From Escherichia phage ECOP18: DNA of 64,000 bases. The notes under the pieces are model-generated. The model ran no database searches. It was not told where the DNA came from and saw only the letters and a list, made by a program, of their open reading frames with translations. How positions within the stretch are numbered: position 1 is the first letter of the stretch; the number at the start of each line of letters is the position of its first letter. Positions 9,156 through 37,162 of the stretch are shown here, piece by piece. The position numbers and the translations under genes are program-made. The stretch is from the sequence record NC_105825.1. One strand, 5' to 3'.

Positions 9156-9169
9156 GTTTTATTTTCCCA

Positions 9170-9606: not shown

Positions 9607-9667
9607 TTTAGACGCTGAGCTTTTAATACATTTGTCTGCAAAATCAGCAACAGCATCTAGGAGTTCT

Positions 9668-16260: not shown

Positions 16261-16263
16261 TTA

Positions 16264-20561: not shown

Positions 20562-21043
20562 TACTTCTTACCTCCAGTAGCTAGGGAAGTAATTAAGTCC
20601 ATATAGTTTTGATCCCCAGCTCCAGCAATAATATTATTCTGGATATTGGTCTGATTAGCAGGAGCACGGACGGCAGCTTTAGCTTTTTCTAGCTCCACCA
20701 TCATTTTCATCTCTTCCATTTTCATCTTGTGCGCCTTCCAGAGAATATCCATAATATCCTGGTCAGAACCCATGCCGGTTTCTTCTAGTTCTTCTAGTTT
20801 ACGCTTAATAACTTCATCTAGAACACCAAACAAACGATCTCTGTTACGGAATCCACTTTCCATAAAAATATCGTTTAAGTAGTTCTTAACTTCACTACGA
20901 TTCATAATATCTCGGAAAGCAATTTCTGACATTCCAAGGCTACGTGCGGCAGAAGGCACATCGCTACCGCACTGTAAATAAGCTTCAATTACATCCATCC
21001 CTTCAGGGGACATAAGATCTGGTACTAATACATCATTTGCCAT
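20561..21043 (-). CDS. putative terminase small subunit / DNA-binding protein (160 aa)
   Basis: Helix-turn-helix-like [16 protein letters not shown]; directly upstream of large terminase. Confidence 0.4.
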
Positions 21044-21053
21044 ATTTCCTCCT

Positions 21054-22811
21054 TTAGGTAAGGCGTTGAACTGTTACTCTTAATCTAGGTAGAAAAACTG
21101 CACTACCTAAACTTACGTGCATAACTACCCCTAACTCTACATTTCCGTTCCCCAGATTTTTAGCAGTGTATATAAAACTATTTCTACTTAGGGCATTGTT
21201 AGGTGTGTATCTAAAAGCAGATGTAGTATGAAAAGGTACTAAATACCCTACTGGTAGTGTTAAAATCTGGTGGAATATCGCATCTCCATTACCATAACTA
21301 TATGCTCTTCTTCCTTGCACTTGAAACACGCCGTTATTCCATGTATTAGCAGGAACACCTGCACAGTTAAGATTACCTGATATAACTTCAGTGGTAAGAA
21401 TTACAGTAGCATTGCCACCCGGTATACCTAGCCCAATAGTTGATAAACCAACGTATCTATCTCCAGTTCCTGGGTAGCTGGGAGTAATATCATCCCCCAT
21501 GTAAGAACTACCAACATTTCCGCTAAAAAGTCGTAGTGGAACTGCTGAAGGCCCCCAAACAACCCCGTGTTCATTACCGATAGTATTATCATTAGAGTTT
21601 ACGTACCATTGCTTACCAGCTCCGAATTTGTAAATACTAATTTGAGACTTAACCCCTCCATAGTCCACAGGAGACCATAAACTCCCGTTACTAGAACCTA
21701 CAAGTTCACACCTTGCGGTGGTATCTCCAAAGGCCCCAGTGTACGCTGCATTATTTCCAACATATTCCATATCTGGTCTATAACCTAAGTTACCAAAAGC
21801 GTTCTGGTTAATAAACTTGTATCCAGTATTGGGAAGACTAACCCCTTTAATTATGAAATTAGAAGGAGATATAAGAATATCTGAACCAGTAAAAGGATTA
21901 CCAGAGATACTCATACCACCATTTGAGTATCTTAAATTCAGAACATACCAAATAACTTTAGTAGGGGTTATGTTATACCAATCCTGTAATATTGTAGCGT
22001 TACCAGATTGGTTAGCTAAATTAGTTGTAGACCCCCTACAAACAAATCTGTTACCTCCATCATGATACATAGTATTTACATTACCAGGAAGACCTTGTCT
22101 TACCCCACCATACCCACGTATGTTAGAGTTACAAACATAAAACCAATCGTGCCCTCTGTGTGCTGATCCTAAAGGAGACATCCATCCTGGGTCCCAGTAA
22201 TATTGGTTATTACCATCTATAGGTACTGTACTACTATTAGTAGGGAATCCTAACTGTGCAAAAGCTTCTGCAACAGTAATACCTACTGGAGCTCCTGCAC
22301 CCGGCCTAACTATATCATGATACGTACTATGTAAGGTAGTACCCCCTGTACCATTCCTAGAAATAGATTCTTCATGCCCTATAGATGGATTATAGTTATA
22401 TGTACCAGATGCCAGGCTATTACCAAATGCAAATCCACTAGTCTGGGAAACACTAGCAAAAGATCTAAAAGGATCTGCTTGAGTGGCAACTATAGTTTGA
22501 CCCACCTTACTCTGAGTACCATTAAGAAAAGCTCTGTGAGTACCATTAATCTCAATAGCAGTTAATATAACTCTACCGGGGTCATTGGATTTAATATTTA
22601 TTATGTCAGAGGGCATCTGACATACAAAAAACCCATTACCGGCATCACCTAACCCAGACTCATAAGTACCATCAACTAGGACAAATGGCATATCACTATG
22701 AAAAATACTATTGGTATTTGGACTATAGTGACGATTAATGTCACCACCAGATTCAGTATTTAAAGATAGTACGGTCTTACCATCGCTATATTTTCCAGCG
22801 AAAAAACCCAT
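21054..22811 (-). CDS. receptor-binding tail protein, pb5/Oad-like by position (585 aa)
   Basis: Gly/Asn/Ser-rich beta-type protein, divergently adjacent to lipoprotein gene as for T5 oad-llp. Confidence 0.55.
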
Positions 22812-22896
22812 ATAATCTCCTATTATAAAAATGTATTTGCTTTCATCTCTCTATTTTGCTATAATATATTCATAAATTAGAAATGGAGAGATAAAT

Positions 22897-23163
22897 ATGA
22901 AAAAGTTTGTGATTACACTAGTTGCCGCAGTTATGTTATCTGGTTGTGCACCTGCTCCCAAACCATTTTGTACTGGATTTGTAAAATCTTTTGGTGGTGC
23001 GGGAGAAGAACATTACGGCCTCAAGGTTCAAAAAGTTCGTATTAAGGGAGATCGATTCCCAGTAGTACAGCTCCGTACTAAGTTTGGGTGGTGGGATCTC
23101 AGTCAGTTTGACCTTAAATATGGTGATTGTAAATTTAAACTAGAGCAATCTAACTACCTGTAA
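22897..23163 (+). CDS. llp: lytic-conversion lipoprotein, Llp-like (88 aa)
   Basis: Signal peptide with lipobox LSGC; divergent from receptor-binding gene. Confidence 0.65.
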   Translation: MKKFVITLVAAVMLSGCAPAPKPFCTGFVKSFGGAGEEHYGLKVQKVRIKGDRFPVVQLRTKFGWWDLSQFDLKYGDCKFKLEQSNYL

Positions 23164-23276
23164 TTAGTATAAAGCAAAAAGACATCTAAGTAAACTAAAT
23201 TTTTTATTTTTTGGACGGTATATTGGCAGAAACCACTATGTAAGAAAAGTAGAAGTCCTTCTAGGAAGTCACGAGC

Positions 23277-23468
23277 ATGGTTGGTTATGCACAAATTATA
23301 AAATATTCCAAATACCAGACTCATAGGAGCATAAAAGATATGTCAAATAAAAGAAAGAACAGACGTGGAGAAGTGTACGAAGCGTGGATTAATATTTACG
23401 GATTTGGTTTTGTATTATTCCTAATCTTCGTAGGTTTTTGGTTAGCAGCTATGGCGGGGTGGATTTAA
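23277..23468 (+). CDS. small membrane protein (likely start at internal Met, ~42 aa)
   Basis: C-terminal hydrophobic helix FGFVLFLIFVGFWLAAMAGWI. Confidence 0.35.
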   Translation: MVGYAQIIKYSKYQTHRSIKDMSNKRKNRRGEVYEAWINIYGFGFVLFLIFVGFWLAAMAGWI

Positions 23469-23623
23469 TGGAATGGGTAATTATTGGCATATTCGTCTTA
23501 TTGATACTTCTCTTTGTAGGCTTACGTGTAATAGATACCTCTGTAACCCAAACAGAAATTAGATTAATGCAGTTGAGTAATAGATTATCTAGAATTGAAA
23601 CTTTATTAGAGGAGCGTAAATAA
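23468..23623 (+). CDS. small membrane protein MEWVII family (51 aa)
   Basis: ATG at 23468; single TM helix; ends ...RIETLLEERK. Confidence 0.4.
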   Translation: MEWVIIGIFVLLILLFVGLRVIDTSVTQTEIRLMQLSNRLSRIETLLEERK

Positions 23624-23730
23624 TGGAATGGGTAATTATTGCACTACTGGGGATTGTGATTATTGGGCAATGTATTCTAGATAATCACTTAGCTAGAATT
23701 GAAACCTTACTATCGGAGAAACGTAAATGA
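23624..23730 (+). CDS. small membrane protein MEWVII family paralog (35 aa)
   Basis: Not in ORF track (<60 aa); MEWVIIALLGIVIIGQCILDNHLARIETLLSEKRK, tandem paralog of preceding gene. Confidence 0.4.
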
Positions 23731-23921
23731 TGGAAGTAGTAGCTACACTAATAGTAATACTAGTCTGGGCAGTTTTCATTATTTCTTACACCGTGTACGT
23801 TCGCCTAAAAACTCTAGAAGCTCAAGTAAAACAACAACAATTTGCGCTAGAAAAATTAGTAGAACTGCAACGTTGTGATAGTACCCGTATTCTGCAAATT
23901 GAGAGGGAATTAGATGTTTAG
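23727..23921 (+). CDS. small membrane protein (64 aa)
   Basis: N-terminal TM helix then charged helix. Confidence 0.4.
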   Translation: MMEVVATLIVILVWAVFIISYTVYVRLKTLEAQVKQQQFALEKLVELQRCDSTRILQIERELDV

Positions 23922-24138
23922 TATTATAGTTGCTTTTATTATCGGGGTAATCGCGGGAGTTTTCGGGACGACTGCGGCTATTAACAAGCATCGTAAATAT
24001 ATTGCGGAAGTATCGCGGGAGATTGCGGAAAGAGAGCGGAAGTTTGACGAGAAACGTGCGGAGTTTGAGCGAGAATGGTCGGATGGATCTCGGGCGTCGC
24101 GGAAGAGATTTCGGGCTAAGGTGAGTGATGAAGAATAA
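23914..24138 (+). CDS. small membrane protein (74 aa)
   Basis: N-terminal TM helix then highly charged tail. Confidence 0.4.
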   Translation: MFSIIVAFIIGVIAGVFGTTAAINKHRKYIAEVSREIAERERKFDEKRAEFEREWSDGSRASRKRFRAKVSDEE

Positions 24139-24664: not shown

Positions 24665-24785
24665 TTAGCACTAAAATGACTTTTGCCAAATTCTTTGGAT
24701 TACGTACGCGTGGGTGGGTCCACTGCCTCCGGCGAAAATACTTAGTCTGCTAACCGCCACCCCCGTTACTATTACCATGCTAACT

Positions 24786-24822
24786 GTTTCACCCTGCAAC
24801 CATTTTAATTGCAGGGTGAAAC
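24786..24822. terminator. bidirectional hairpin between convergent genes
   Basis: Perfect inverted repeat gtttcaccctgcaa...ttgcagggtgaaac. Confidence 0.5.
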
Positions 24823-24839
24823 AATTTCAACTTTAATTA

Positions 24840-25574
24840 TTACGCAACTTTTAATTTCTCCATGTATTGTTGCGGGCTGCAACTATATTCTGCGCGTTCT
24901 TCCTCGGTCATACCTTCCCAACATAATTTCAAACGATCAGCTAGGAATTGATAATCATTATCATCGTCGAGGGATTCATCAATAAAGGTTTCACCTATCA
25001 ATGTAACCCCAATCGATAGAATATCGTTAACGGCTTGTGCGTCCAGCGTTTTAAATCCATATGACGCTGCCGCTGATAGCACGCCTTTATGATCATCAAT
25101 CATTGTAAAATCAGCGTTCGGATATAACTGTTTAAATAACTCAAAATAATAAGATTTATACACGGCGTCCTTGCTGTGGTATATTTCGCTAACCTTATCA
25201 GCTTTAAAATATTTATGCAGTGTGTCGCGGGAAAACACGCGGATATTGCTTTTATCACGACCACGCAAGCCTTGTTTGCGCAGGAAGTAATAATCTGATT
25301 TGCTCATTAGTCGAGCGGTGCAAATAATGTTTAAAGTATTTGCGTCATTCATGCACTGGCGCATGTATTCAACTAATGGTAATAATGTATCTTGCATTAT
25401 TAAATGATGTTTGCAGGCTTCATTTTTATACTTATTTAAATCTAAATTGCCCTCACTATCAAAGCAAGGCGCTACACGGTGGAAAGAATTAACAATAGTG
25501 CCGTCTAAATCCCAAATCATGACGCGGGAAATATGCGGGAAGCTGCGGGAAATATTCATAATAGCTTTATTCAT
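24840..25574 (-). CDS. dmp: 5'-deoxyribonucleotidase Dmp-like, HAD hydrolase (244 aa)
   Basis: HAD motif I (IWDLDGTI); size matches T5 Dmp (from memory). Confidence 0.65.
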   Translation of the reverse strand: MNKAIMNISRSFPHISRVMIWDLDGTIVNSFHRVAPCFDSEGNLDLNKYKNEACKHHLIMQDTLLPLVEYMRQCMNDANTLNIICTARLMSKSDYYFLRKQGLRGRDKSNIRVFSRDTLHKYFKADKVSEIYHSKDAVYKSYYFELFKQLYPNADFTMIDDHKGVLSAAASYGFKTLDAQAVNDILSIGVTLIGETFIDESLDDDNDYQFLADRLKLCWEGMTEEERAEYSCSPQQYMEKLKVA

Positions 25575-25661
25575 TTTGTTACGTTCTCCATTTAAGGGAT
25601 TAGATTAATTCAATCTTGCCAGCTAATTATATTAGATTAGCTGGCAATGTTCAATTAACTA

Positions 25662-26054
25662 TTAATTAGTGAGGCCATACGCTAGCGCGTCACCAATAAA
25701 GCTAAGATCTTCACCATGTACGCTAGAACGAATCCCCGCGCAAGTATAAACCATTGCGCTAGCTTCTGGATTGCAGACCGGACACGGCTTAACAACTGCA
25801 AACGCTAAACCGGATTTAAGCGCATCAATAATAATTGTTTGCACTGTCAAAGTATCAGCGTAAACGCCTTTTGCTTTTGTATGGCTTGCCACTTTGCCGG
25901 TATCATAAGCAAAGGTAGTAACCTGCAAAGCGTCGTTATAATTCAGCAAATCAAAATTAACTTGCCCCGCCTCGACGTGGTAACGTTCGCCGTTAGAATA
26001 AACCAGAACAATGGAAGACTGAGCGCGGTCAAATGGAATATTTTGCTTTTTCAT
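25662..26054 (-). CDS. hypothetical pre-early protein (130 aa)
   Basis: ORF track. Confidence 0.4.
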   Translation of the reverse strand: MKKQNIPFDRAQSSIVLVYSNGERYHVEAGQVNFDLLNYNDALQVTTFAYDTGKVASHTKAKGVYADTLTVQTIIIDALKSGLAFAVVKPCPVCNPEASAMVYTCAGIRSSVHGEDLSFIGDALAYGLTN

Positions 26055-26093
26055 ATTTATAAAACTCCGGTTAGTTTAATATAGGGATTTAAT

Positions 26094-26384
26094 TTATTGT
26101 ACTGTAATACTAGGAGAATGATTAGTTAATTCTAGTGGCACTTTAAACGTTTCTTGTGATAGCGTACAGGCATCTATAACAATAGCCCCCGCTTTACCTA
26201 CTACTAGCACACCATTATAAACAGGGATAATAAAATCACCTTTATGAATTGGATAATCGGGATATTCTAGGAGGTCAGAACATGCGCGATATACTTCCCC
26301 GTTTATATAAGCATCTTGATAAGAAATATCATCCAGTAAAGAGGATTTAGGGGAAAATTCATTGCTAGGTAAATTAATTTTCAT
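26094..26384 (-). CDS. hypothetical pre-early protein (96 aa)
   Basis: ORF track. Confidence 0.4.
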   Translation of the reverse strand: MKINLPSNEFSPKSSLLDDISYQDAYINGEVYRACSDLLEYPDYPIHKGDFIIPVYNGVLVVGKAGAIVIDACTLSQETFKVPLELTNHSPSITVQ

Positions 26385-26394
26385 ATTGCGTCAC

Positions 26395-26652
26395 CTATTT
26401 AATAATAATCTGCATCTGGTACGGCGTTAATTCACCGTTTACGGGTAAATTATTATCACTTAGCCACTCATAAAAAGCGCTATCGTCATCAAAAGGAACA
26501 ACATCATTATCACGGGAATCGACGGAAATAATGCCATCAGTATTAGTTTTGGCGGCTAGGATAGGCCCGAAGCTGTAAACTTTATCGGATTCCATTTCAT
26601 CGGGTGAAATGAATACTTTTTCGTCCAGTGTTTTGGGTAATGTAACTTTCAT
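26395..26652 (-). CDS. hypothetical pre-early protein (85 aa)
   Basis: ORF track. Confidence 0.4.
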   Translation of the reverse strand: MKVTLPKTLDEKVFISPDEMESDKVYSFGPILAAKTNTDGIISVDSRDNDVVPFDDDSAFYEWLSDNNLPVNGELTPYQMQIIIK

Positions 26653-26704
26653 TTTTGTGACTACTGAAATAGCGGCTATATTTCAAGCCGCCGCCCTGAT
26701 TTAA

Positions 26705-28369
26705 TTACGCAAAAAATTTGCCGTTTTTAAAGTCGATCAAAGTACGCTGGCCGTTCGCATAGGTAATAACATGCGTTTGCGTCCAGCTTGACGCGCCAAC
26801 GTTGTAACCCATGTCCAGACTACCAGCTACGCCAGCGGTATATACCCCGCCGTAAATGCTTGCCGTATGAGTATGCCCCGTGTTTAATTTGCCCAATTTC
26901 TTAAACTGTTTAGGATTGCCACGGCTGCCGTTAATGCCGTTGTGACCGTGTACGCCGCATTCAATGCCTGCAATTTTAAATGATTGGTCAGTTGTTAGGA
27001 AAATGGCGTTAAACTCGCAACCTGCAACCTTACGCAGCGCATAATCTAGCACGTTGAAAGTATCGTCTTTTTCTGCAATAGCTCCGTAAATCGCGGCATT
27101 TAGGCGGTGATACAGTTCCGCGTTGGCTGGATCGTCCTTAATGTTAGCATTACGATCATCTAACCAACGGGATAGCGCCAGATCGTGGTTTGATTCTACA
27201 ATGATCGTTTGAGAAAAATCGCGCTCCATTGATTCCAGTACGCGCCCCGTATCGATGAGATCATCCAGCACTTTATCACGTCCGGCGGCGTATTGTTTTG
27301 CTAGGAATACACCGGATGCACGGTTATGATGGTTGCGAGATGTAAAATCATGCACGTCATGGATAAACTGATATTTTGGTTTAAGAATATCAAGCAAGCT
27401 ATTTTCGCCAGCCCATGACGCAGCGGCGCAATCGTCATCTAATTTTTCGGCGTGAATATCGCCATACTGCAAGCCTAAAACATGCCCCGATGTTTCATAA
27501 CATCCGGCGGGAGTAGCGCAAACATTCAGATCATAAAATACCCCGCTTTCATCCATCGTTTCAAGCTGGCGAACAAAAAATTCCCCGTCCTCGTCGAACT
27601 CGACAACAAGCGCACCGAAATTATGAAGTGCTTCCGCTTTTTGTCCTGCTTTCTGCTGGATGTAATTTTTTAGCGTTGCCGTGCCAGTTGAATACATACG
27701 GCGCACTACTTCACCTTTTAAAGCTGGCACGCTTTCAGCGGTGATTTTAGCGTGACCAATTGCCAGCCCCTCAATATTGAGCGCCGTTGCAGTTTCTGCA
27801 AATCCTGAAAGCGGGTAATCTGCGGTTGGCAAAACATTAATTTCAGCCATGAAAGCAAAACGGCGGTTATTTAAAAACACGTTTTTGCTGCAAATATATT
27901 TATCAAATGCGGGATCGTATTTGATACCGTCTGCACCTTCTCCATTCTGGAAGCCGTTTTTATTATAAATATACTTAGAAACAAGCAAATCAGCACCGAT
28001 ATATTCAGCGAATTTTTCCAGACTTGCTAAAAAGTTTTTATGCGGGAAAGTATTATTTTGAATCGACGTAATAATAAAGCGTTTACCCTGTTTTACTTCC
28101 CATTGCTCAACCGTACTAGAAACAATTCCCGCCGCTTCTGGGCGCTCATCGTTTTTAATGGCTTTTGTTACTTTTGCCGCTTTCGGTTTAGCTGGTTTAT
28201 TTGCTTCCAGCCAGTCGCAGATAGCGGTTGAATGCTTCGTTGTATCGTAGACCGCTTTTGATATATCGTCGCAGACTTCCAGTTTAGTAGCGCGCAGACG
28301 TTTACCATAGAAATTAAAGTCAGCGGCCATTTTCAGGATAACGGTTTGTTTTTCTGCGGAAATAATCAT
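26705..28369 (-). CDS. A1: A1-like pre-early protein, metallophosphoesterase fold (554 aa)
   Basis: Calcineurin-like motifs (GDIH, SNHD, GHTH); size and position match T5 A1 (from memory). Confidence 0.65.
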   Translation of the reverse strand: MIISAEKQTVILKMAADFNFYGKRLRATKLEVCDDISKAVYDTTKHSTAICDWLEANKPAKPKAAKVTKAIKNDERPEAAGIVSSTVEQWEVKQGKRFIITSIQNNTFPHKNFLASLEKFAEYIGADLLVSKYIYNKNGFQNGEGADGIKYDPAFDKYICSKNVFLNNRRFAFMAEINVLPTADYPLSGFAETATALNIEGLAIGHAKITAESVPALKGEVVRRMYSTGTATLKNYIQQKAGQKAEALHNFGALVVEFDEDGEFFVRQLETMDESGVFYDLNVCATPAGCYETSGHVLGLQYGDIHAEKLDDDCAAASWAGENSLLDILKPKYQFIHDVHDFTSRNHHNRASGVFLAKQYAAGRDKVLDDLIDTGRVLESMERDFSQTIIVESNHDLALSRWLDDRNANIKDDPANAELYHRLNAAIYGAIAEKDDTFNVLDYALRKVAGCEFNAIFLTTDQSFKIAGIECGVHGHNGINGSRGNPKQFKKLGKLNTGHTHTASIYGGVYTAGVAGSLDMGYNVGASSWTQTHVITYANGQRTLIDFKNGKFFA

Positions 28370-28459
28370 AGTAATAAAACTCCATTAAAGGGATTAGATT
28401 AATAACGGCAATATTGCCAAATATAACGCCTCAAATAATAGGCGTTATAATTTGCAACA

Positions 28460-28657
28460 TTAATTTAAAGGCACTAGGCTAGAACTAACACCACAAGCAA
28501 CGGCAGCGATAAAACAAAGCAAGCCCAAACGTTTTGCTAATTTAGATTTACGTTTAAAATAATATGAATCTAAATCATTTTGAAAATAAGCGAACAATAA
28601 CGAGGCCGCCATAATAAACAAGCCTAGAATTAATGATTCAGTAGGATAAAAGATCAT
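28460..28657 (-). CDS. small membrane protein (65 aa)
   Basis: Two hydrophobic helices. Confidence 0.35.
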   Translation of the reverse strand: MIFYPTESLILGLFIMAASLLFAYFQNDLDSYYFKRKSKLAKRLGLLCFIAAVACGVSSSLVPLN

Positions 28658-28749
28658 TTTAAAAACTCCTGATTTAAGGGAAGAAAATAACTATCGCTAA
28701 ACAGTTATATTATTGCCCCCTCACTAAAAAAGGGGGCAAGGTATAACTA

Positions 28750-29157
28750 TTATTCGCCTGCGGCTTGTTTTACTTCCTCGGCAACGCCTAACAATTGCGC
28801 TACTGCGTCCAGCGTTTCAAGTTTTGCACTTTCAAGGCTTGCCAGATCATCGGCATCTTTGATAATGCCGGAATCGATAGCGTGTTTTGCAATAACGCGT
28901 ACATAATGAGCTTTGCGGATTGAACTACCGCCGCCAACTTTGCGAGGCTTATCGCTTTTTTGATATGCTTTTGCGCTGGTCAATTTTGACCGAACGGATA
29001 CGGGAGAAGCCGCGCCTACTGCTTTTGCAATCTCTTTCAGGCCGTCGCTATTTGCGAAATCTAAACCGTTTTCATTAATTAACTGTTGATACATGGAAAC
29101 AGCTTTCTGAGTGTTTTCTTCATTCCATGCGAATTTTGCGGTTTTAGCGTTAGTCAT
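28750..29157 (-). CDS. A2: A2-like pre-early DNA-binding protein (135 aa)
   Basis: Position upstream of A1-like gene; basic central segment. Confidence 0.45.
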   Translation of the reverse strand: MTNAKTAKFAWNEENTQKAVSMYQQLINENGLDFANSDGLKEIAKAVGAASPVSVRSKLTSAKAYQKSDKPRKVGGGSSIRKAHYVRVIAKHAIDSGIIKDADDLASLESAKLETLDAVAQLLGVAEEVKQAAGE

Positions 29158-29253
29158 GATGTAACTCCTATTAGTTTAATTTAAGGGATTAGATTAACTT
29201 AATGTTAATCGTTATATCCCCCTGAAATAAGGGGATATAAAGTTAACACTAAT

Positions 29254-29505
29254 TTACAATACAGCTTCCCATTTTTCGTTGCGTTGAACAACCTTTACAA
29301 CATCGCCGGATTTAACGCGAACGCTAAAAACGGGCTTGCCGTTGTTACTACGTTCATTTTCAGCGTATACCGCGTCGATTGTATCGAACGGCATAAGCGC
29401 CGCACCTTTAATACGTTCGGCCTTTCCGGTTAATTCATCCGTTTTAGTAACGAAAGGAATGAAGACGGATTGACCAACTTTCGGCGCGGTAATAACGTTT
29501 TGCAT
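29254..29505 (-). CDS. hypothetical protein (83 aa)
   Basis: ORF track. Confidence 0.4.
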   Translation of the reverse strand: MQNVITAPKVGQSVFIPFVTKTDELTGKAERIKGAALMPFDTIDAVYAENERSNNGKPVFSVRVKSGDVVKVVQRNEKWEAVL

Positions 29506-29735
29506 AATATAAACTCCTAGTTATTTGGGGATTGTTCCGCATTACCTGCTAGAAAGTAACAGCAGGTAATAAGTAACAATCCGCTCGCCAATATAATCAA
29601 TTTTAAAGAACTCCACGTAGGCCGCTATATCCCGTTAGGGGGCGGGATGCATTATGGTAAGCACCGACCGTCAAATTTTATCAAGTTATCGCTCTTATCG
29701 AACTGGGTACATCTTAAAACCTATCGGCTAGGTTG

Positions 29736-29939
29736 TCAAACAATTTTTTGCAATTTTTTATGATTTTCTTTTAGGTCAATCATAATATTTCGCCAGATCA
29801 TTTCCAGACCTTGCTGGCGACCTTTCTTGTACTGCGTGAATCTATATCTTACTGATCTTTGAGCTACTGTCAACAAATTTTTTGTTTTGCTATCTAGTGC
29901 CTTAATAGGCTTGCCAGTGATCAAAAGCGTTTGTTTCAT
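29736..29939 (-). CDS. hypothetical protein (67 aa)
   Basis: ORF track. Confidence 0.35.
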   Translation of the reverse strand: MKQTLLITGKPIKALDSKTKNLLTVAQRSVRYRFTQYKKGRQQGLEMIWRNIMIDLKENHKKLQKIV

Positions 29940-30386
29940 ATCGTCGATTCCTTATAATGAATAAGTTTACCGCCGATAGGCTTTAAGATGTACCCAATTT
30001 TTAAAGAGCGTGGCGGTAAACTTCCCGCCGTGTAGTTCGTCATTGCCGCCCTACGAGATAAATAATAGGGGATTCCCGAAAATGGCGCAACCTTATTTTT
30101 GTAAAGAAATGTAAAGGTAAAACTCACCGGACACCGTGCGGCGACGGCCTAAAATTAAAAGAAACGGGCGCGCGAATACCACAAAATAAAGCAAATAGGC
30201 AAGTAATTTTTTCATTTATATTTGCTTTGCCCTACTTGACAAAATCTAAAAAGCTCGTGGTAACGATAAACGGCTTATCCCCTTATGATGGGATGGCTAA
30301 AAACTTTATTGCGTTCTGGAGCGTTTTAGGCGCATTCTAGCCTTGTTGATAACTTATCCCCAAAAGCAAAAATGAAATTTTCCTAG

Positions 30387-30395
30387 TTATCCACT
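30387..30395 (+). promoter_or_regulatory. DnaA box-like (ttatccact)
   Basis: 8/9 match to TTATCCACA; inverted partner agtggataa at 30411-30419. Confidence 0.45.
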
Positions 30396-30497
30396 TGACT
30401 TTTATTTTCCAGTGGATAACTACTTATTTTATGAAATAAATTAATTGACTTTTATTTGTTAGTATGCATCGGAAAGATAGCAGACTAATAATTGCTA

Positions 30498-30512
30498 GAA
30501 TGATAATCATGC
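30498..30512. promoter_or_regulatory. Fur-box-like site (gaatgataatcatgc)
   Basis: Contains AATGATAATCAT, the core of the Fur consensus GATAATGATAATCATTATC. Confidence 0.35.
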
Positions 30513-30518
30513 TGGTGG
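30511..30518 (+). other. Chi octamer GCTGGTGG
   Basis: Exact match; second copy at 33872-33879, same strand. Confidence 0.4.
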
Positions 30519-30683
30519 ATTGTAACGACCTGAATTATTAGCAGACTATTAATCACGGAAAAATCTCATTAGCCAACTAACTATTTCATGATATATAATA
30601 TACATATAAATTAATGAGAAATAATAACTATAAGAAATCATCTAGCTAAGTGAGAACCACTATCATTTAAGTTATACACAAAG

Positions 30684-30692
30684 TTATCCACA
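30684..30692 (+). promoter_or_regulatory. DnaA box (ttatccaca)
   Basis: Perfect consensus 9-mer. Confidence 0.55.
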
Positions 30693-30763
30693 GCACTTTT
30701 TGACTTGACACGATAGGCGGCGATATAAGGACTTTTACACAGACTTATCTACAGGTTATTCCA

Positions 30764-30779
30764 CTGTATAAATATACAG
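30764..30779. promoter_or_regulatory. LexA (SOS) box-like palindrome ctgtataaatatacag
   Basis: CTGT-N8-ACAG with AT-rich spacer. Confidence 0.45.
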
Positions 30780-31046
30780 GGTAAAAAGGTAGTGTTAACA
30801 ACTGCAATCAATTTTAAGCGGCTTAAATCGCATTCTAACGAGCTAAACGCTGCGGGGTAATATTAAAGTAAAGCCTTAATGCGTCGCCCTGGTGGCTTCG
30901 CCGTGGTTTGCTCTTTATTGCACCGCTGCGCGGTTAGCATAAAAATAGGCGCTAGGCAAGGAAAATAAAAAGGTAAAATAATATTTGCCTATGCTAGAAA
31001 TTTACCTTTATCATTCACTCACCGATTAACGAGGGAGGCCGAACAA

Positions 31047-32057
31047 ATGAGGCTTTATAAACCTGATAATGCCACCGTTTTAAAAGGTGCATTGCGCAAC
31101 CTGCTGGATGGTAGCAAGTCAACCAGCATTAAACATTTTATTAACAAGATTGAAACTATTCATCAAAACTTTTTTGATGATTATGACGCTTATGATATGG
31201 ATAGTTTTCTACCCTTATATAGACAAGGGGCAACGCTAGTTTTATATAATCGGGATTGCCATATCTTTACAGGCAGGGGAGCGGGGCCGGATACCGATTT
31301 TATTGTTGCGCAGGGTAATAATATTGTTGCGTATCATAGCAATTCAGGCCGTCAATCATTTAATATAAATAGTTTTGAGCTTATTGGACTTGATCTGATA
31401 AATGGACTTTCTAGCATTGAGGGATTTTTAGATGTTATCTGGAAGTATTTACCCGCTGGATGGCATAAGCCGGATAACGACGGATCTCAATATACCGGTA
31501 TAATGGCTTTTGATGGCGACGGTAATTTTTTGTTACCACGGGAGCTATACCCATATATTTATGATGGGGATATAGAAAGCGCTGGTTTTTCTTTCTGGAA
31601 AGATGAAGATCAGATTATTGACAGCGTAGAAAACCATGCTGTAAATTCTAACACTCAAAGCGTTAACACTCAAACTACTGAAAACAAAGGAAAAAACACT
31701 AGGACCAAGATTGCTAACATCGTTGCCGCTAATAAATCCGCCGTTGTAAATGCTGCAAAACTGGAAGCGGGTAAAATTGCACTGACTCAAATCACGAAAG
31801 TAGCGGCTAAAAAAGCACCGTTCATGATTAAAGGCTATATTGATACGCCGATTGGTCGAGTAGTGATTGCTAACCTGCTAAGTGTAGCGGTTGACCAGTA
31901 CGCACCGACTAACCAGAAAGCGAAAGCGGTAGCAGGGGCGGCTATGGAAGCGGCAATGGTGGAAATGGTGCAAAGTTTTAACATCGCTGAAATGATTGAT
32001 GAAATGGTGAAAGGTATTGATATTTCTACTTTTACCACTAGCACCGAAATCGAGTAA
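31047..32057 (+). CDS. hypothetical protein (336 aa)
   Basis: RBS gagggagg upstream; N-terminal globular part, NT-rich linker, amphipathic Ala/Val/Lys-rich C-terminus. Confidence 0.6.
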   Translation: MRLYKPDNATVLKGALRNLLDGSKSTSIKHFINKIETIHQNFFDDYDAYDMDSFLPLYRQGATLVLYNRDCHIFTGRGAGPDTDFIVAQGNNIVAYHSNSGRQSFNINSFELIGLDLINGLSSIEGFLDVIWKYLPAGWHKPDNDGSQYTGIMAFDGDGNFLLPRELYPYIYDGDIESAGFSFWKDEDQIIDSVENHAVNSNTQSVNTQTTENKGKNTRTKIANIVAANKSAVVNAAKLEAGKIALTQITKVAAKKAPFMIKGYIDTPIGRVVIANLLSVAVDQYAPTNQKAKAVAGAAMEAAMVEMVQSFNIAEMIDEMVKGIDISTFTTSTEIE

Positions 32058-32066
32058 TAATATTTA

Positions 32067-32096
32067 GTGGGGATTATTTCCCCACTTTACTATTCC
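32067..32096 (+). terminator. hairpin plus T-rich tail
   Basis: agtggggattatttccccact followed by ttactatt. Confidence 0.45.
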
Positions 32097-32122
32097 CTTG
32101 TTAATTAATAGGAGGCTAACTA

Positions 32123-32617
32123 ATGGCTGAGGAAAAATACGGCTTCTCGCTAGGAGAAGTGAGCACGGCTAAACATGATATGATCATTTTAGTCGATTGT
32201 CATACTGGCTATTGCGGAGAAGGGAACACCGAAGAATACTTTGTTCCTGCTGGTACGGATCTGGACGCTTTCGCTCATGAAATGGCTATTGATAATGCTT
32301 CTCGTTTTGGTAGCGATGGCTATGAAGACGAAGAAACTGGCGAATGGTATGAAAATGAAAACGTATATGCAAGCCTTTATCATTATCAGCTAAGTAAATC
32401 CGGCACATATGTAAACGGCGGCGATCCTATTAATTCCGTCATGAAATTAATTATTAAATATGGTGGCGTCGAGATAATTGATAACAAAGCGGTAATATAC
32501 GCAAACCGATTAAAACAGCTTGTTTATATTCCTGATAGTACCCGATGGGATGAATACGCTGTTTTGCATGACGAATTGAAACGATGTTTCAATATTGAAT
32601 CCCTGCAAGTAGTCTAA
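32123..32617 (+). CDS. hypothetical acidic protein (164 aa)
   Basis: RBS aggaggc; Asp/Glu/Tyr-rich, no motif. Confidence 0.6.
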   Translation: MAEEKYGFSLGEVSTAKHDMIILVDCHTGYCGEGNTEEYFVPAGTDLDAFAHEMAIDNASRFGSDGYEDEETGEWYENENVYASLYHYQLSKSGTYVNGGDPINSVMKLIIKYGGVEIIDNKAVIYANRLKQLVYIPDSTRWDEYAVLHDELKRCFNIESLQVV

Positions 32618-32722
32618 TGTAAAGTTTTGTAAAGGTCGCCTTTTATGGTGGCCTTTTTTGTTATAATGCTTTTACACCAAAACGGTGGATTGAAAATTTT
32701 CCCAAAAATTTGGAGGCTTAAA

Positions 32723-32953
32723 ATGGTTGCTTATTCTTCTGCTAGTCATCTGTTTACCGCGCAAGGCTGGGTATCTAATCGTGCTGTCATCTATGAAATG
32801 GTGCAGGAGTTCGGCATTGCTAAAACTTATAATACCATTCAGGAACTATATAACGCCGATAAAATCGATCAGCAAACGGCTGGCTTTTTACTGGATACCC
32901 TGAAAGCTGAACATTGCACTAAAAAACAAGCCGCTAAAATTGTTTTAATGTAA
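32723..32953 (+). CDS. hypothetical protein (~76 aa; start moved to ATG with RBS)
   Basis: ggaggcttaaaATG at 32723; ORF track start 32645 lacks RBS. Confidence 0.45.
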   Translation: MVAYSSASHLFTAQGWVSNRAVIYEMVQEFGIAKTYNTIQELYNADKIDQQTAGFLLDTLKAEHCTKKQAAKIVLM

Positions 32954-33002
32954 TTAATAACGGGGCGTTACTTTCGCCCCGATAACTAGGAGGCTATCAC
33001 AA

Positions 33003-33150
33003 ATGGTTATTTTTCGATCTATTTTAGCGGGTATCTTGGGCGCTATTTTATCGTTATTTGCGATAGCTTTCGGCGTTCACGCTGTTATTATTGGCGCTGG
33101 CATTGCTGCGTTTTCTTATCTGCTGGGCTGCATGACTAGTAAAGGAGAAT
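33003..33150 (+). CDS. small membrane peptide (49 aa)
   Basis: Not in ORF track; strong RBS taggaggct; two hydrophobic helices. Confidence 0.45.
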
Positions 33151-33154
33151 AAAA

Positions 33155-33367
33155 ATGATCCGCAACGTTTCCCTTGCACGTTCGAAAGGCTTTAAGCTGG
33201 TGGATGTTAACACGTTCGAGCGGGAAGATTGTAAAATCGAATATGTAGCACGTAACAAAAATGCCTTTCGTGTTACCGAGAAAAAATTTGATAAGCGCGG
33301 CAACGTGATAGCTGAAACAGTTAAACATTTTGCCACCTTTTACGCTGCTTTTCGTGGGGTATTATGA
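33155..33367 (+). CDS. hypothetical protein (70 aa)
   Basis: RBS aaggaga; basic. Confidence 0.45.
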   Translation: MIRNVSLARSKGFKLVDVNTFEREDCKIEYVARNKNAFRVTEKKFDKRGNVIAETVKHFATFYAAFRGVL

Positions 33368-33486
33368 TTCAGCAAATTAAAACGGCTTTTCGTTTTTGGG
33401 GCGTCCTGCCTTCAATTGGTTTTATTCTGATAATTATTAGTCAGCTAATGATCATCGGCGGAACTATTTGGGAGCTATGCAAATGA
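33364..33486 (+). CDS. small membrane peptide (40 aa)
   Basis: Not in ORF track; start overlaps previous stop; single TM helix. Confidence 0.35.
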   Translation: MIQQIKTAFRFWGVLPSIGFILIIISQLMIIGGTIWELCK

Positions 33487-33827
33487 TAATTTATGAAGGC
33501 AATCGCTTTGTTGCTAATTACCGTCCGGCATTATTAGCAAACTATTTAAACCAGCTTTCCCCAGCTTATAAGGGCGTTATTAATATTTATGAGGGAAAGG
33601 CGCATTATAAAATTAATGCGGTCGTTGCCCGTGAACTAGCATTTCAATTTTTGACCTTTGCATCTTGTGACGTTCAGGTTATGGGTGAGGCATTAATCGC
33701 GGAAAATGAAGAGGATTTTATTAATATTTTCCGTAAGGTATGCACTGAGCGCTTGATAATGAAAGGCGCGTATATTCAATCAACTGCGGAAAGTATTGAA
33801 ACAGCATTTCGAAAGGTGGCGCAATGA
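33483..33827 (+). CDS. hypothetical protein (~114 aa)
   Basis: ATGA overlap with previous gene; ORF track frame 33468-33827. Confidence 0.45.
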   Translation: MIIYEGNRFVANYRPALLANYLNQLSPAYKGVINIYEGKAHYKINAVVARELAFQFLTFASCDVQVMGEALIAENEEDFINIFRKVCTERLIMKGAYIQSTAESIETAFRKVAQ

Positions 33828-33927
33828 GATTATATATTTTCGTTGGTAATGTTAAGGCAGCTAATGATTCCGCTGGTGGCGACAACGTTCGCCACCATTG
33901 GCAAAAATATATTTACTAGGAGTTATT

Positions 33928-34035
33928 ATGTCTGGTTTAATGTTTACCTTATTAGTAGTTTATAGCATAATTACGGCAGGAATAGTAACTTATGTTACTA
34001 GTAAAATTTGGCCGGGAATATATGGTAATTTTTAA
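33928..34035 (+). CDS. small membrane peptide (35 aa)
   Basis: Not in ORF track; RBS taggag; single TM helix. Confidence 0.35.
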   Translation: MSGLMFTLLVVYSIITAGIVTYVTSKIWPGIYGNF

Positions 34036-34050
34036 TAACGGAGCGTTATT

Positions 34051-34254
34051 ATGAGCAATAAAATTATTGTAACCAAAATCAGTACAATGGTTGATGTTTT
34101 TTACGTGCCAGATACGCCGGAGAATCGGCAAGCGGTCGAGCGGGGCGAATATGATAAAGTGATTTATGATCACGATGGTTATTATCAGTATTTGGTGGAT
34201 TCCTACGGGGAGGAGGAGAAGATCACGCATCGACTACCGGAGGAGGGTTTATGA
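34051..34254 (+). CDS. hypothetical acidic protein (67 aa)
   Basis: ORF track; RBS acggag. Confidence 0.45.
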   Translation: MSNKIIVTKISTMVDVFYVPDTPENRQAVERGEYDKVIYDHDGYYQYLVDSYGEEEKITHRLPEEGL

Positions 34255-34406
34255 AACGATGGTTTAATCACTGGTACAAGCGGTTTTTAGTACGCCGTCG
34301 CAAGTCTAGGCATCAAGATGAGTGGCGGGAGTGGGCAAAGCGTAACGGTTGCCCGCTACTATAATAATCACGGGGCGCAACTATCGGGAAGTGCCCCCAA
34401 TTCTCA

Positions 34407-34427
34407 AATGAGAATGATTCTCATTTG
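34407..34427. repeat. Fur-box-like palindrome, copy 1
   Basis: aaatgagaatgattctcattt. Confidence 0.5.
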
Positions 34428-34620
34428 ACCGCGCCCGCGATGGTTAGCCTGCTAATGATTAGGGTGTTACGTGTCGCCTTGTGTGATCGTTAGCGAGCTA
34501 ACTAATTTTCAAGCCTCCTCCAATTTTGCCCTTGTTTTAGTATCTCCACCAAAATTAAACGCGTTAGAATGCGATCTAGGACGTTTTAACGCTATATTAG
34601 AATTATTCACTGCGTAGGAA

Positions 34621-34640
34621 TACTGTATATTTATACAGTA
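34621..34640. promoter_or_regulatory. LexA (SOS) box-like palindrome tactgtatatttatacagta
   Basis: CTGT-N8-ACAG, close to consensus TACTGTATATATATACAGTA. Confidence 0.5.
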
Positions 34641-34648
34641 GGATAAGC

Positions 34649-34657
34649 TGTGGATAA
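34649..34657 (-). promoter_or_regulatory. DnaA box (tgtggataa)
   Basis: Perfect reverse complement of TTATCCACA. Confidence 0.55.
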
Positions 34658-34721
34658 GTCTGTTAATAACACCCCAAAATGGCTAGGATTCTGTCAAGTC
34701 AAATCGTGCTGTTAATAAGTC

Positions 34722-34730
34722 TGTGGATAA
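34722..34730 (-). promoter_or_regulatory. DnaA box (tgtggataa)
   Basis: Perfect reverse complement of TTATCCACA. Confidence 0.55.
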
Positions 34731-34796
34731 CTTAAATAATAGTGTTTCTCACTTCCGTTCTTAAATACGAATCACTATCATTTGCGTTCCACTTTC

Positions 34797-34815
34797 TAAA
34801 TGAGAATCATTCTGC
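34797..34815. repeat. Fur-box-like palindrome, copy 2
   Basis: taaatgagaatcattctgc. Confidence 0.45.
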
Positions 34816-34901
34816 TTTTTAAAGGAGAATCGTTTCACTTCCTGAATAATTCTCACTTCCATTCTTAAATGCGAATTATTATCATTCTCATTCCGCTTTT
34901 T

Positions 34902-34930
34902 AAATGAGAATCATTCTCATTATCATTCGC
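34902..34930. repeat. Fur-box-like palindrome, copy 3 (perfect 19-bp palindrome AATGAGAATCATTCTCATT)
   Basis: aaatgagaatcattctcattatcattcgc. Confidence 0.5.
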
Positions 34931-34964
34931 ATTCAGGCGAGCAGGGCAATTGCCCTGCGCTTTT

Positions 34965-35632
34965 GTGCAAATCCGACATTGCTCCACGGGTGTTACGTGC
35001 GGGCGTGTATGTGCGAATCCGACAATTTTTGGTAGTGTGCAAATCCGACCCGAAAAATTTTTATAGTGTGCAAATCCGACAATGAATTTTCCTAAAAACT
35101 CCAGCAATCACGAACTGCGTTCGAATCCTGTGGGGTATGTGCAAATCCGACACGGTTTTTCTAGGATTAAGATGTGCGAATCCGACAAGATTTTTGTGAC
35201 TTCGATTGGAGGGTGTGTGATTGTGTGAGTTTGGGGAGAAGTTGAGAGAGCGAGAAAAATTTGAGGGAACTGCGGGAGGGGCGCATGTTTGGTGCGGAGC
35301 ACCTGATTTGCGGGGATTTTGGGGAAGAGTTGAGAAGATTTGGGTTAATTTGAGATTAGTGCAGAAAAAGTAAAATTTTATTAGCTAAATGGAGCAAAAT
35401 AGCTTGACAAGTGAAAATTCTTGTGGCTCTAAAAACTCAGGCAATCATGGGCCTTCGGCCCGAAATAATGCTGCCATTTTCAGGAGATTATGTGTCCATG
35501 AAAACTCAGGCAATCATGGGCCTTCGGCCCGAAATAATGCTGCCATTTTCAGGAGATTATGTGTCCATGAAAACTTAGGCAATTGTGCAAATCCGACCAG
35601 TTTTTAAACTTATGTCAGTGTGCAAATCCGAC
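34965..35632 (+). repeat. dispersed direct-repeat family GTGC(A/G)AATCCGAC(A/C), eight copies
   Basis: Copies at 34965, 35011, 35037, 35068, 35139, 35174, 35585, 35619; each followed by a T/A-rich tract; spacing irregular. Confidence 0.7.
35432..35569 (+). repeat. perfect tandem duplication, 2 x 69 bp, each unit with GGGCC-TTCG-GCCC hairpin
   Basis: Unit aaaactcaggcaatcatgggccttcggcccgaaataatgctgccattttcaggagattatgtgtccatg repeated head to tail. Confidence 0.8.
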
Positions 35633-35677
35633 AGTAATTTCTGGAAATGTGTTTTGGAAAAATGCCCTCTAGAAATA

Positions 35678-35749
35678 ACCGCCCTCCCAATAACCGCCCT
35701 GTATTAAACCGCCTAGTATATGTTCCTAGAAACTTAGGAGAACCGCCCT
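35678..35749 (+). repeat. short direct repeats aaccgccct (3-4 copies)
   Basis: Copies at 35678, 35692 and 35741, plus a degenerate copy at 35707. Confidence 0.5.
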
Positions 35750-36077
35750 AGAAAGAGGGAGTATTTCGTGAGAACTCTGGAGTTTCTAGGAAAGTGTTGT
35801 GCCATCCTAGCAGAAGAGCGGCAACCGGTGTATCATCTTGAACACAAATATTGCCTTTAAATATTTTTAGTTATTTAAAAGTAAATATACCCCCATTTCA
35901 TGTGAGATTCCTCGTGGGGCGCGTGAGTATTACGGAAGAACTCTAATATTGGCCCGCGCTAAGACTAGCCGCTATAGCACAGACGCAAATAGAGTTGTAA
36001 TAATCATCGCCCCTAGAGTTCACAATAAGAGTTATTGTTAATCTATGAGATTATTATAACATACATTTTTAATAACG

Positions 36078-36833
36078 TCAAGAAGATTTTACTAATGTTT
36101 TTGGATTCTTCTTGGCTTTGAGATATATCCCTTTAGATGCTAGATAGATATATGTTGCTAGAAATGAAGATTCTGATCCCGATTCCTCATAGGTTAACGT
36201 ACCTCTAGGGTATTTATTTGTTTTAGGAGCATAGTTAAGCACAGCCGCAGTTAATGACCCTAATCCTAGAACATCTGCAAGACGTCTAAAGGTATTCTCT
36301 TCATCATGGATAGCATAAAGAATGTTATCTTCAATATCCGTTAATGGAATTTTACGGGTATGAGATACTGCAATCCGTGCTATCATAGCTCCAATTGTTT
36401 TATTAATATCCTCGAAAGAAACACTCTCCATATATTTTAGAGGGGGAAGATGGTCATATTTACATTTCTTAGGTGGAATAAGAAGTTGTTCAGGATAAGC
36501 CTCTAGTGCCTGACGAACGTTTGCTTCTGGATATGTTGGTAAAGGTTCATCTATAATAACATGTAAGAAATTAGCTCTGTGCCCCTTAGCAGTTGGATCT
36601 AAAGACTTCAATATTTTGTTCATATCCACGTATGAATACGCTAGATCTGCTTGAGGAGCATTAATATCAAACTTAATCTTCTTACCTTCCCATTTAGCAG
36701 GGAACATCTCACAAACAAACATTACTGCATGTTTAACATCTGGCTCTAGCTCTGATAGACATTTGTGATCTGCTGTTACTGCTAAAGCGAGTATATTCTT
36801 AAATTTATTAGCTTCTTCAATCATATATCCCAT
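36078..36833 (-). CDS. hypothetical early protein (251 aa)
   Basis: ORF track; no motif recognised. Confidence 0.45.
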   Translation of the reverse strand: MGYMIEEANKFKNILALAVTADHKCLSELEPDVKHAVMFVCEMFPAKWEGKKIKFDINAPQADLAYSYVDMNKILKSLDPTAKGHRANFLHVIIDEPLPTYPEANVRQALEAYPEQLLIPPKKCKYDHLPPLKYMESVSFEDINKTIGAMIARIAVSHTRKIPLTDIEDNILYAIHDEENTFRRLADVLGLGSLTAAVLNYAPKTNKYPRGTLTYEESGSESSFLATYIYLASKGIYLKAKKNPKTLVKSS

Positions 36834-37162
36834 GCCTGCTGACTATTATCACTAACTTGTGTCTTTTTCTTTCTTTGTGGTTTAAAAGCTCCTTTAGTAT
36901 TGCTTCTATTAGGCTCTAATTTATACCACAGCATTCCTAGCTGGTTAACCATATGAGCAACATTTCTAGGAGTCAATGGTGGTAGAAATTCGCAGTTTGA
37001 TATTTCCACTAATATATTAAGTAACTCTGTCTCTTTAGCTTTACTGTTTACTACCACCACGTATTCTAATGTTTCTACCTCGGAATCCTCGTCTTTATAG
37101 TAGAGGCTAAGAGTAATTAAATTGTCACCAGCAGGAGTTATTTTTGTTTTACCAAATATCAT
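36821..37162 (-). CDS. hypothetical early protein (113 aa)
   Basis: ORF track. Confidence 0.4.
   Translation of the reverse strand: MIFGKTKITPAGDNLITLSLYYKDEDSEVETLEYVVVVNSKAKETELLNILVEISNCEFLPPLTPRNVAHMVNQLGMLWYKLEPNRSNTKGAFKPQRKKKTQVSDNSQQAWDI

Follow-up and report, generated by a model that had tools for sequence, protein, structure and literature searches.

Why T5 DNA stops after 8% of the genome has entered the cell, and how A1 and A2 restart the transfer, is a long-standing problem. In T5, the left end of the DNA enters the cell first, the arrest needs no phage protein synthesis, and it is absent in vitro with the purified receptor (Davison 2020, bioRxiv 10.1101/866236). The same work describes T5 Repeat Region 3, which is conserved in 25 phages and carries eight paired DnaA boxes, and its inverted partner, IRC-spacer-IRD, in Repeat Region 2. 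Later work citing Heusterspreute et al. 1987 credits Repeat Region 3, along with the injection stop signal (iss), to that paper. As annotated in the T5 record AY543070, the iss spans 9140-10149, the left terminal repeat ends at 10219 and the minus strand has a major nick at 9748/9749; the record AY587007 contains a detailed feature table of the repeats. Here we describe the corresponding block, positions 34380-35770, in a stretch of 64,000 nucleotides from Escherichia phage ECOP18 (NC_105825.1), which is called the window below. The block is textbook T5 biology, and a sequence-only reading had recognised in it, from the raw letters, the boundary of first-step DNA transfer in T5-like phages.

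By its sequence, the window is from a Tequintavirus. The block is 99.8% identical to Escherichia phage vB_EcoS_MM-1 (MM-1) and matches 455 phage records, nearly all of them T5-like. A more sensitive search with 34529-35430 as the query returned 542 records, and 395 of them cover at least 80% of the query. We carried the T5 features onto window coordinates by alignment. The window is collinear with T5 at ~9330-10409, with 88% identity over 983 bp, and all the named repeats map. The boundary proposed by the sequence-only reading is therefore supported, since the T5 iss and the end of the left terminal repeat align with the block base for base. To judge from the sequence, it is virtually certain that the ~10.7-kb terminal repeat of a T5-like phage has its non-coding right end in this block, and that, element by element, the block is homologous to the T5 Repeat Region 3 that holds the annotated iss. 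Thus, the block was already known, and finding it is a rediscovery of an annotated T5 feature. Two elements are excepted, the AACCGCCC repeats and a 69-bp tandem duplication that is private to this genome, as neither is a feature in the T5 GenBank records.

The layout of the window follows from comparison with MM-1. Positions 15837-24110 are the right unique end with the terminase and the receptor-binding protein. The long terminal repeat is present as a single collapsed copy at ~24718-35429 (10,712 bp), and the sequence past 35429 is the left unique (early) region. The minus-strand genes dmp (24840-25574), A1 (26705-28369) and A2 (28750-29157) lie at the left of the repeat. The block had been placed roughly 10 kb from the start of the dmp-A1-A2 genes; it lies 9.7-11.1 kb from the start of the terminal repeat at 24718.

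The candidate core of the iss is a module, IRD'-spacer-IRC', at 34623-34754, with a T5 counterpart in Davison 2020 (bioRxiv 10.1101/866236). It begins in palindrome D (T5 9330-9349), which aligns with the LexA-type box TACTGTATATTTATACAGTA at 34621-34640. This 20-mer has one mismatch (19/20) to the LexA consensus TACTGTATATATATACAGTA, for which we used TACTG(TA)5CAGTA, and 100 shuffles gave no match at three or fewer mismatches. The near-consensus LexA box of the sequence-only reading is thus real as a sequence match, and so are the two perfect DnaA boxes that it had placed at 34649 and 34722. Perfect boxes TTATCCACA stand on the minus strand at these two positions, and a third is found at 30684 (three against 0.53 expected in the window). 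Each of the two minus-strand boxes belongs to a pair with a 3-bp gap. In pair 1 (34649-34669, T5 DRB copy 1), the perfect box at 34649-34657 is followed by the variant TTATTAACA at 34661-34669. In pair 2 (34710-34730, T5 DRB copy 2), the variant TTATTAACA at 34710-34718 precedes the perfect box at 34722-34730. Mapped by alignment, IRD' occupies 34623-34663, DRB1 and DRB2 occupy 34648-34670 and 34709-34731, and IRC' occupies 34715-34753.

The module is present twice. The partner, IRC-spacer-IRD of T5 Repeat Region 2, lies at 30648-30779 and contains a DnaA box at 30684-30692 on the plus strand and the first LexA-type box of the window, with the core CTGTATAAATATACAG at 30764-30779. The two copies form a 132-nt inverted repeat, 77% complementary, 3.8 kb apart. 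The upstream copy lies outside the block as originally delimited and belongs to the same system. Both copies bracket the rightward pre-early gene cluster at 31047-34365. When compared with T5, DT57C and the Klebsiella and Pantoea phages, the genes of this cluster are poorly conserved or replaced, and the non-coding modules on either side persist, so that a variable gene cassette is enclosed by inverted repeats.

We also assessed how strictly this arrangement is kept among relatives. About 45 distinct loci of the 542 matching records were sampled, and 35 loci were anchored on the neighbouring DnaA pair only, after which the 20 upstream bases were read. The pattern TACTGT-N8-(A/C)CAGTA was kept in 34 of the 35, even where the further upstream flank cannot be aligned. 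Changes fall mainly in the central AT-rich bases (ATATTTAT, ATAAATAT, ATATTTGT) or replace ACAG with CCAG, a substitution that is common in natural LexA/SOS boxes. One phage lineage has the box centre GTATTTAT, and two near-identical loci have an A-to-G change beside CTGT. The asymmetric centre flips its orientation between phages (ATATTTAT or ATAAATAT). In the candidate stop signal, the bases that vary least make up a consensus LexA site, which stands beside DnaA boxes. The motifs of the block were also looked for in related phages, as an absence would have spoken against the sequence-only reading, and they are present there.

The box stands beside DnaA boxes, in two inverted copies, in T5-like phages of Escherichia, Klebsiella, Pantoea, Pectobacterium and Vibrio. 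The same arrangement is seen with an A1 of only 33-43% identity. The comparison phages Chester and My1 and the A1-bearing contigs were picked independently of the motif. Vibrio phage Chester, with an A1 of 33% identity, carries TTATCCACA twice and then TACTGTATATTTATACAGTG, and it has an inverted partner with more DnaA boxes 3.5 kb away. Pectobacterium phage My1 has both module copies together with the palindromes, the DRD copies and the AACCGCCC repeats. In each of two contigs whose A1 is 43% identical, the box occurs twice, and one copy abuts DnaA boxes. Viral contigs hold 82 stretches with the composite TTATCCACA-N(0-30)-CTGTAT-N4-ATACAG, and A1, A2 and dmp at 30-45% identity are encoded in many of them. 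In bacterial genomes the composite occurs in 15 stretches in 596 Gb, which is about the estimated chance level. The paired DnaA and LexA composite was also seen in four phage contigs without detected A1 or A2 (L091 6464-6500, L070 5248-5288, L098 6705-6741 and L067 10574-10609). In these it is intergenic and lies at module borders: in the gap between a terminase-like cluster and primase-helicase, just upstream of terminase genes, or beside tail-fibre genes.

The reading of palindrome D as a LexA box paired family-wide with DnaA boxes is possibly new, and is the one predicted detail that we did not find published. The literature search, which included Davison 2020 and did not include Heusterspreute 1987 or Davison 2015, found no paper linking LexA with T5-like phages. 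In GenBank, the only name of palindrome D is 'palindrome D'.

Judging from homology with T5 and from its position, DNA entry probably pauses in the region of the block after ~8% of the genome, until A1 and A2 allow the rest to enter. The T5 shear point is estimated at coordinate 9618 (Davison 2020, bioRxiv 10.1101/866236) and maps into a perfect palindrome at 34903-34921. Rhoades, as quoted by Davison 2020, saw a second first-step fragment of ~5.8 kb, and this size is close to the position of the other module copy at T5 6022. Because the two copies of the module match the two fragment sizes, the module may be the pause element. Davison proposed docking of the DNA by membrane-associated DnaA (bioRxiv 10.1101/866236). 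Since LexA and DnaA are both present before infection, we favour this proposal and extend it to LexA. The working part of the stop would be the 132-bp IRD'-spacer-IRC' module, in which one LexA-type box abuts two DnaA-box pairs and which is present twice per repeat in inverted orientation. Each copy, on emerging into the cell, would be bound by resident host proteins, namely DnaA, as Davison suggested, and LexA, which we add here. A bulky or membrane-tethered complex would then hold the DNA, helped by the hairpin-prone palindromes just behind the module, and A1 and A2 would later release or cut the complex.

We regard the step in which host-protein docking on the module stops the transfer as a tentative proposal that falls somewhat short of an even chance. 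Identity, function and mechanism taken together make the favoured explanation, and for that whole the chances are about evenly balanced. The most specific form of the idea is that palindrome D is a genuine LexA site, which with the abutting DnaA pairs makes a virus-specific docking module for two host proteins. This module would stand in two inverted copies in the first-entering DNA, from Escherichia to Vibrio phages, would recur in some unrelated phages and, rather than the surrounding repeats, would be the lock on first-step transfer. In this form the idea is unlikely.

Several points weigh against the docking explanation. Even in the T5 literature, the block is named as the cause of the arrest because of its position, the iss having been placed by shearing and position and not by mutation. 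By our own reasoning, a protein complex on internal DNA would be a physically weak brake against the capsid pressure at 8% ejection. The best promoter match over the LexA-type box is 9/12, which is at background frequency (12 matches compared to 8.0 +/- 3.2 in shuffles). DnaA clusters without a clean LexA box were seen in two contigs whose A1 is 34-35% identical, and one Klebsiella phage has CCAG in one half-site. A phage protein of similar specificity could equally explain the conservation of the palindrome. A2 was also considered as a LexA-like protein that might compete for the box; its comparison with Pfam and PDB sequences gave no match. A single-sequence model of A2 (predicted local distance difference test, pLDDT, 75.7; predicted template modelling score, pTM, 0.40) has two small helical bundles, and its fold matches are non-significant ones to helix-turn-helix, homeodomain and Myb-like domains (E at least 0.7). 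Judging from this model, A2 appears to have no recognisable relation to LexA or another family, and nothing links it to the LexA-type box. T5 grows on recA hosts, so LexA cleavage by RecA cannot be the restart signal. Such a restart is attractive, since A1 destroys host DNA. A2 mutants degrade host DNA and do not complete the transfer (Davison 2020, bioRxiv 10.1101/866236), and we rejected it on both grounds. We also looked for a classical SOS-regulated promoter over the box, and with matches of at most 9/12 it is unsupported.

Of the other explanations, the one that survives best is recognition of the genome end. In this view, terminase would take its signals for the cut at 35429|35430 and for the start of packaging from the GTGCRAATCCGAC array, with six copies to the left and two to the right, from the conserved TTGACAAGTGAAAA motif, from the G-rich tract and perhaps from the AACCGCCC repeats. 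As an account of the block it is possible and clearly below an even chance; it would explain the right half and leaves room for an injection stop signal on the left. All eight copies of GTGCRAATCCGAC lie on the plus strand (34965, 35011, 35037, 35068, 35139, 35174, 35585 and 35620), and none is found elsewhere in the 64 kb, while shuffles give 0.06. The sequence-only reading had listed eight copies each followed by a T/A tract. The number holds, and the tract follows six or seven of the eight, the first copy being without it. DRD1-6, with the form (T)GTGCRAATCCGAC(A), occupy 34964-35187 on the plus strand inside the terminal repeat, and DRD7-8 occupy 35584-35633 on the same strand outside it. 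Orientation and number of the DRD copies are conserved in Escherichia, Yersinia, Klebsiella, Pantoea and Pectobacterium phages. Directly left of the repeat end is a tract of ~200 bp within 35150-35400, delimited here as 35190-35400, where G greatly exceeds C on the plus strand (GC skew 0.6-0.7, several GGG/GGGG runs). It is conserved in T5 and contains DRA2 and DRA3 (35316-35354 by alignment). This tract, the hairpin at 34941-34958 and the physical repeat end are additions to the sequence-only reading.

The right repeat end, ...TTGACAAGTGAAAATTCTTGTGGCTC|TAAAAACTC at 35405-35430 with the cut between 35429 and 35430, was placed from the annotated ends of relatives. MM-1, T5 (two records) and phiR2-01 end at the same aligned base, ...TTGTGGCTC|TAAAAACTC, which is 255-257 bp after the sixth DRD. 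If these four records are followed, the block adjoins a physical genome end at 35429. Using the 8081-bp repeat length quoted by Davison, the DT57C end falls ~253 bp past a DRD copy with one mismatch. The My1 end is set in a comparable context, where the TTGACAA(A/G)TGAAAA motif recurs, and here too DRD copies stand on both sides. The terminal repeats of DT57C, T5 and My1 are 8.1, 10.1 and 12.9 kb long. Four (A)AACCGCC(C)T repeats, which the sequence-only reading had also noticed, follow at 35676-35750 on the plus strand and are conserved in relatives (AACCGCCCT at 35677, 35692 and 35741; AACCGCCTA at 35707).

The DRD array, the G-rich tract and the TTGACAAGTGAAAA motif are partly outside the repeat. 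The estimated shear point is left of all the DRD copies, so these copies would still be outside the cell during the pause. As a general rule of last in, first out, the end that enters last is packaged first. Since the left end enters first, packaging should start at the right end. For these reasons the elements of the right half are better candidates for terminase signals than for an injection stop. In Vibrio phage Chester, DRD copies are absent and another tandem array (~13 x 8 bp) stands exactly at the terminus. This array, at 1-107 of Chester, consists of ~13 units (TCTAGACT / TCTATCCA) where T5-like coliphages carry the GTGCRAATCCGAC array. The motif TAACCGCC is also found 34 nt inside the left repeat end, at 24751-24758, and likewise in T5 and MM-1. 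The left end of My1 (17-45) carries a AATGAGAAT...TCTCATT palindrome and ACCGCCCT. Motif families of the right end thus recur at the left terminus. Against this explanation, the literature search yielded no data on where the T5 terminase binds or cuts, the left end of the repeat has no DRD copy nearby, and the DRD spacing is irregular (46, 26, 31, 71, 35 and 411 bp). On balance, it is more likely that the GTGCRAATCCGAC array and the G-rich tract, which bracket the repeat end, serve genome-end recognition, and the block is probably divided into an injection-related left half and a genome-end-related right half.

The 69-bp tandem duplication lies at the same end. The unit 35432-35500 equals 35501-35569, so the 2 x 69-bp duplication (35432-35569, plus strand) is exact, as the sequence-only reading had it. 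It starts 3 bp right of the repeat end, and each unit contains one GGGCC-TTCG-GGCCC hairpin. MM-1 and T5 have a single copy. The copy-to-copy junction is contiguous in none of the best 25 of 272 matching phage records, where all 17 places of full coverage are split in two. Pre-existing 14-nt direct repeats, AAAACTCAGGCAAT and AAAACTTAGGCAAT, which are alike at 13 of 14 positions, flank the duplication, and slippage or unequal exchange would therefore fit. Since it adjoins the physical end and is private to this genome, an assembly artefact is also allowed for. The duplication could thus have arisen by slippage between the 14-nt repeats or be an artefact of assembly. Further right, a strong sigma-70-like promoter was seen on the minus strand at 36053-36081 (TTGACG, 17-bp spacer, TG-extended TATAAT, 11/12). 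It stands at the stop codon of the open reading frame (ORF) 36078-36833 and points left into the non-coding region, with no gene downstream.

An arrest caused by DNA structure alone is improbable, and less likely than genome-end recognition. Here the palindromes at 34746-34934, the GC hairpin and the nick would form cruciforms or kinks that jam the tail or the membrane channel, and no host protein would be needed. Palindrome-rich direct repeats do fill 34746-34934. They comprise DRC1-4 with palE-I (34759-34928 by alignment, the AATGAGAAT palindrome family) and the DRE units at 34746-34813 and 34850-34917. Self-complementarity is strong at 34790-34935, where the single-stranded DNA fold is -19.8 kcal/mol compared to -8.5 in shuffles (z -5.1, 0/200 shuffles). 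The estimated shear point lies inside the perfect palindrome 34903-34921, and the equivalent of the T5 7.9% nick is 40 bp further on. This nick 1 aligns at 34953-34960 and is predicted to fall on the minus strand between 34960 and 34961, with a 5'-GCGC end. On the other side, in vitro ejection is complete with receptor proteoliposomes (Davison 2020, bioRxiv 10.1101/866236), so DNA alone does not block the channel. Structure also leaves unexplained why conservation is highest in the LexA and DnaA boxes and why a second copy of the module stands 3.8 kb upstream. Finally, the module differs less between phages than the individual palindromes do.

Of the three perfect 19-bp palindromes reported by the sequence-only reading, two are perfect, at 34407-34425 (central G) and 34903-34921 (central C). 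The copy at 34799 differs from the motif at two positions and is no palindrome, and there are further degenerate copies. The copy at 34407 is part of a 25-bp palindrome, TCAAATGAGAATGATTCTCATTTGA at 34404-34428, with which the perfect copies of the AATGAGAAT-N-ATTCTCATT family begin. Fur boxes were considered for these palindromes and remain a weak lead only. The likeness to the Fur 7-1-7 pattern reaches 12/14 (TGAGAATCATTCTCA), the best 19-mer reaches 16/19, and 49 matches of at least 13/19 occur in the window, 10 of them inside the block; the key T gives way to G, C or T depending on the phage. The best Fur-like match of the window is a perfect 7-1-7 consensus, TGATAATCATTATCA, at 24949-24963, inside the dmp coding sequence near the left repeat end.

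Pure transcription control is very unlikely. The block would then terminate the rightward pre-early operon and hold a LexA/DnaA-controlled promoter (-35 over TTATCC, -10 in the box TATAAAT), timed by the destruction of host DNA. In its favour, the hairpin GCAGGGCAATTGCCCTGC followed by GCTTTT lies at 34941-34964 on the plus strand (terminator scan; stem 34941-34958, T5 palJ), so that on the transcribed strand a T-run comes after a GC-rich hairpin. This is a predicted intrinsic-terminator-like site for the rightward pre-early operon. A second GC-rich hairpin, GGGGCGC...GTGCCCC, was read from the sequence at 34372-34397 on the plus strand, just past the last pre-early ORF. It stands roughly where T5 has palindrome C, a putative terminator (9194-9213), in a poorly aligned stretch in which only the end of the T5 feature maps (34400). 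A T5 terminator feature at the equivalent place and the bracketing of the pre-early cluster by the module copies also fit. For the promoter the case is poor, because its matches are not above shuffles and the box centre flips between phages, unlike a fixed -10. A better promoter-like sequence for the operon was read by eye 200 bp further downstream of the upstream copy. In addition, 1.4 kb of conserved repeats would be unaccounted for. The terminator hairpins and the site equivalent to the T5 7.9% nick are thus best seen as other putative functions within the block.

A replication origin is highly improbable. It would combine the DnaA boxes with iteron-like repeats and AT-rich DNA. The paired DnaA boxes do form a cluster, the eight 13-bp repeats lie on the same strand, and the arrangement has been called reminiscent of oriC (Davison 2020, bioRxiv 10.1101/866236). 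The same source places the T5 origins, by electron microscopy, near mid-genome and states that replication genes are not expressed from the first-step DNA. No AT-rich unwinding element was identified beside the boxes.

The sequence-only reading had found only spurious ORFs in the block. We compared codon-position substitutions, indels and stops with six relatives for the nine ORFs of at least 40 amino acids. Substitutions are flat over the codon positions (e.g., 5/5/6 and 8/9/10), most indels have lengths not divisible by three, and in-frame stops occur in relatives, whereas the adjacent gene 33468-33827 shows a third-position excess, from 5/5/25 to 14/8/38. No Rfam match for a structured RNA was found at E up to 1 in 33000-37000, and ARAGORN found no tRNA. 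The MM-1 record, at 3092-4593, has nine to a dozen 'hypothetical proteins' of 30-50 amino acids across the block, almost certainly gene-finder over-calls. That the block encodes small proteins has a negligible chance, as this automatic annotation in MM-1 and some other records is outweighed by the nine ORFs without codon bias, the biased flanking gene and the curated T5 records, which annotate no genes in the region.

If the docking of DnaA and LexA on the module is true, LexA is a previously unrecognised host factor in the 58-year-old problem of two-step injection. Reading palindrome D as a LexA site gives an inexpensive experimental way into the injection question. The division of the block into a left and a right half would be useful for engineering T5-like phages and for annotating their termini.

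When compared to T5, the ECOP18 block has palindrome D, IRD', DRB1/2, IRC', DRC1-4, palE-J, the nick site, DRD1-8, DRA2/3 and the repeat end, all of which map, and it stands at the same place after dmp-A1-A2 and the rightward pre-early genes. It differs in having two perfect DnaA boxes instead of one and the box variants TTATTAACA instead of TTATCAACA. The stretch 34380-34528 cannot be aligned, DRD9 is absent, and the 69-bp tandem duplication just past the repeat end is private to ECOP18. With terminase arrays as generally known (lambda cosB, P1 pac, SPP1 pacL/pacR), the right half shares short motif repeats on either side of a fixed cleavage point, and its distances to the cut are longer (~250 bp and ~90 bp in single-copy genomes). 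With oriC and DnaA-titrating clusters, the left half shares consensus TTATCCACA boxes in tight pairs; in the phages these are combined with a LexA-type box, a composite that in bacterial genomes is at about chance level. With LexA operators (the SOS boxes of Enterobacterales; host LexA is also used by phage GIL01), it shares the CTGT-N8-ACAG palindrome at 19/20 to the consensus, and variation among the phages falls mainly at positions that vary in natural boxes too. Unlike these operators, the predicted ECOP18 site stands over no recognisable promoter and sits in a virulent phage without a lysogeny switch. The phage box is always beside DnaA boxes, as two inverted copies.

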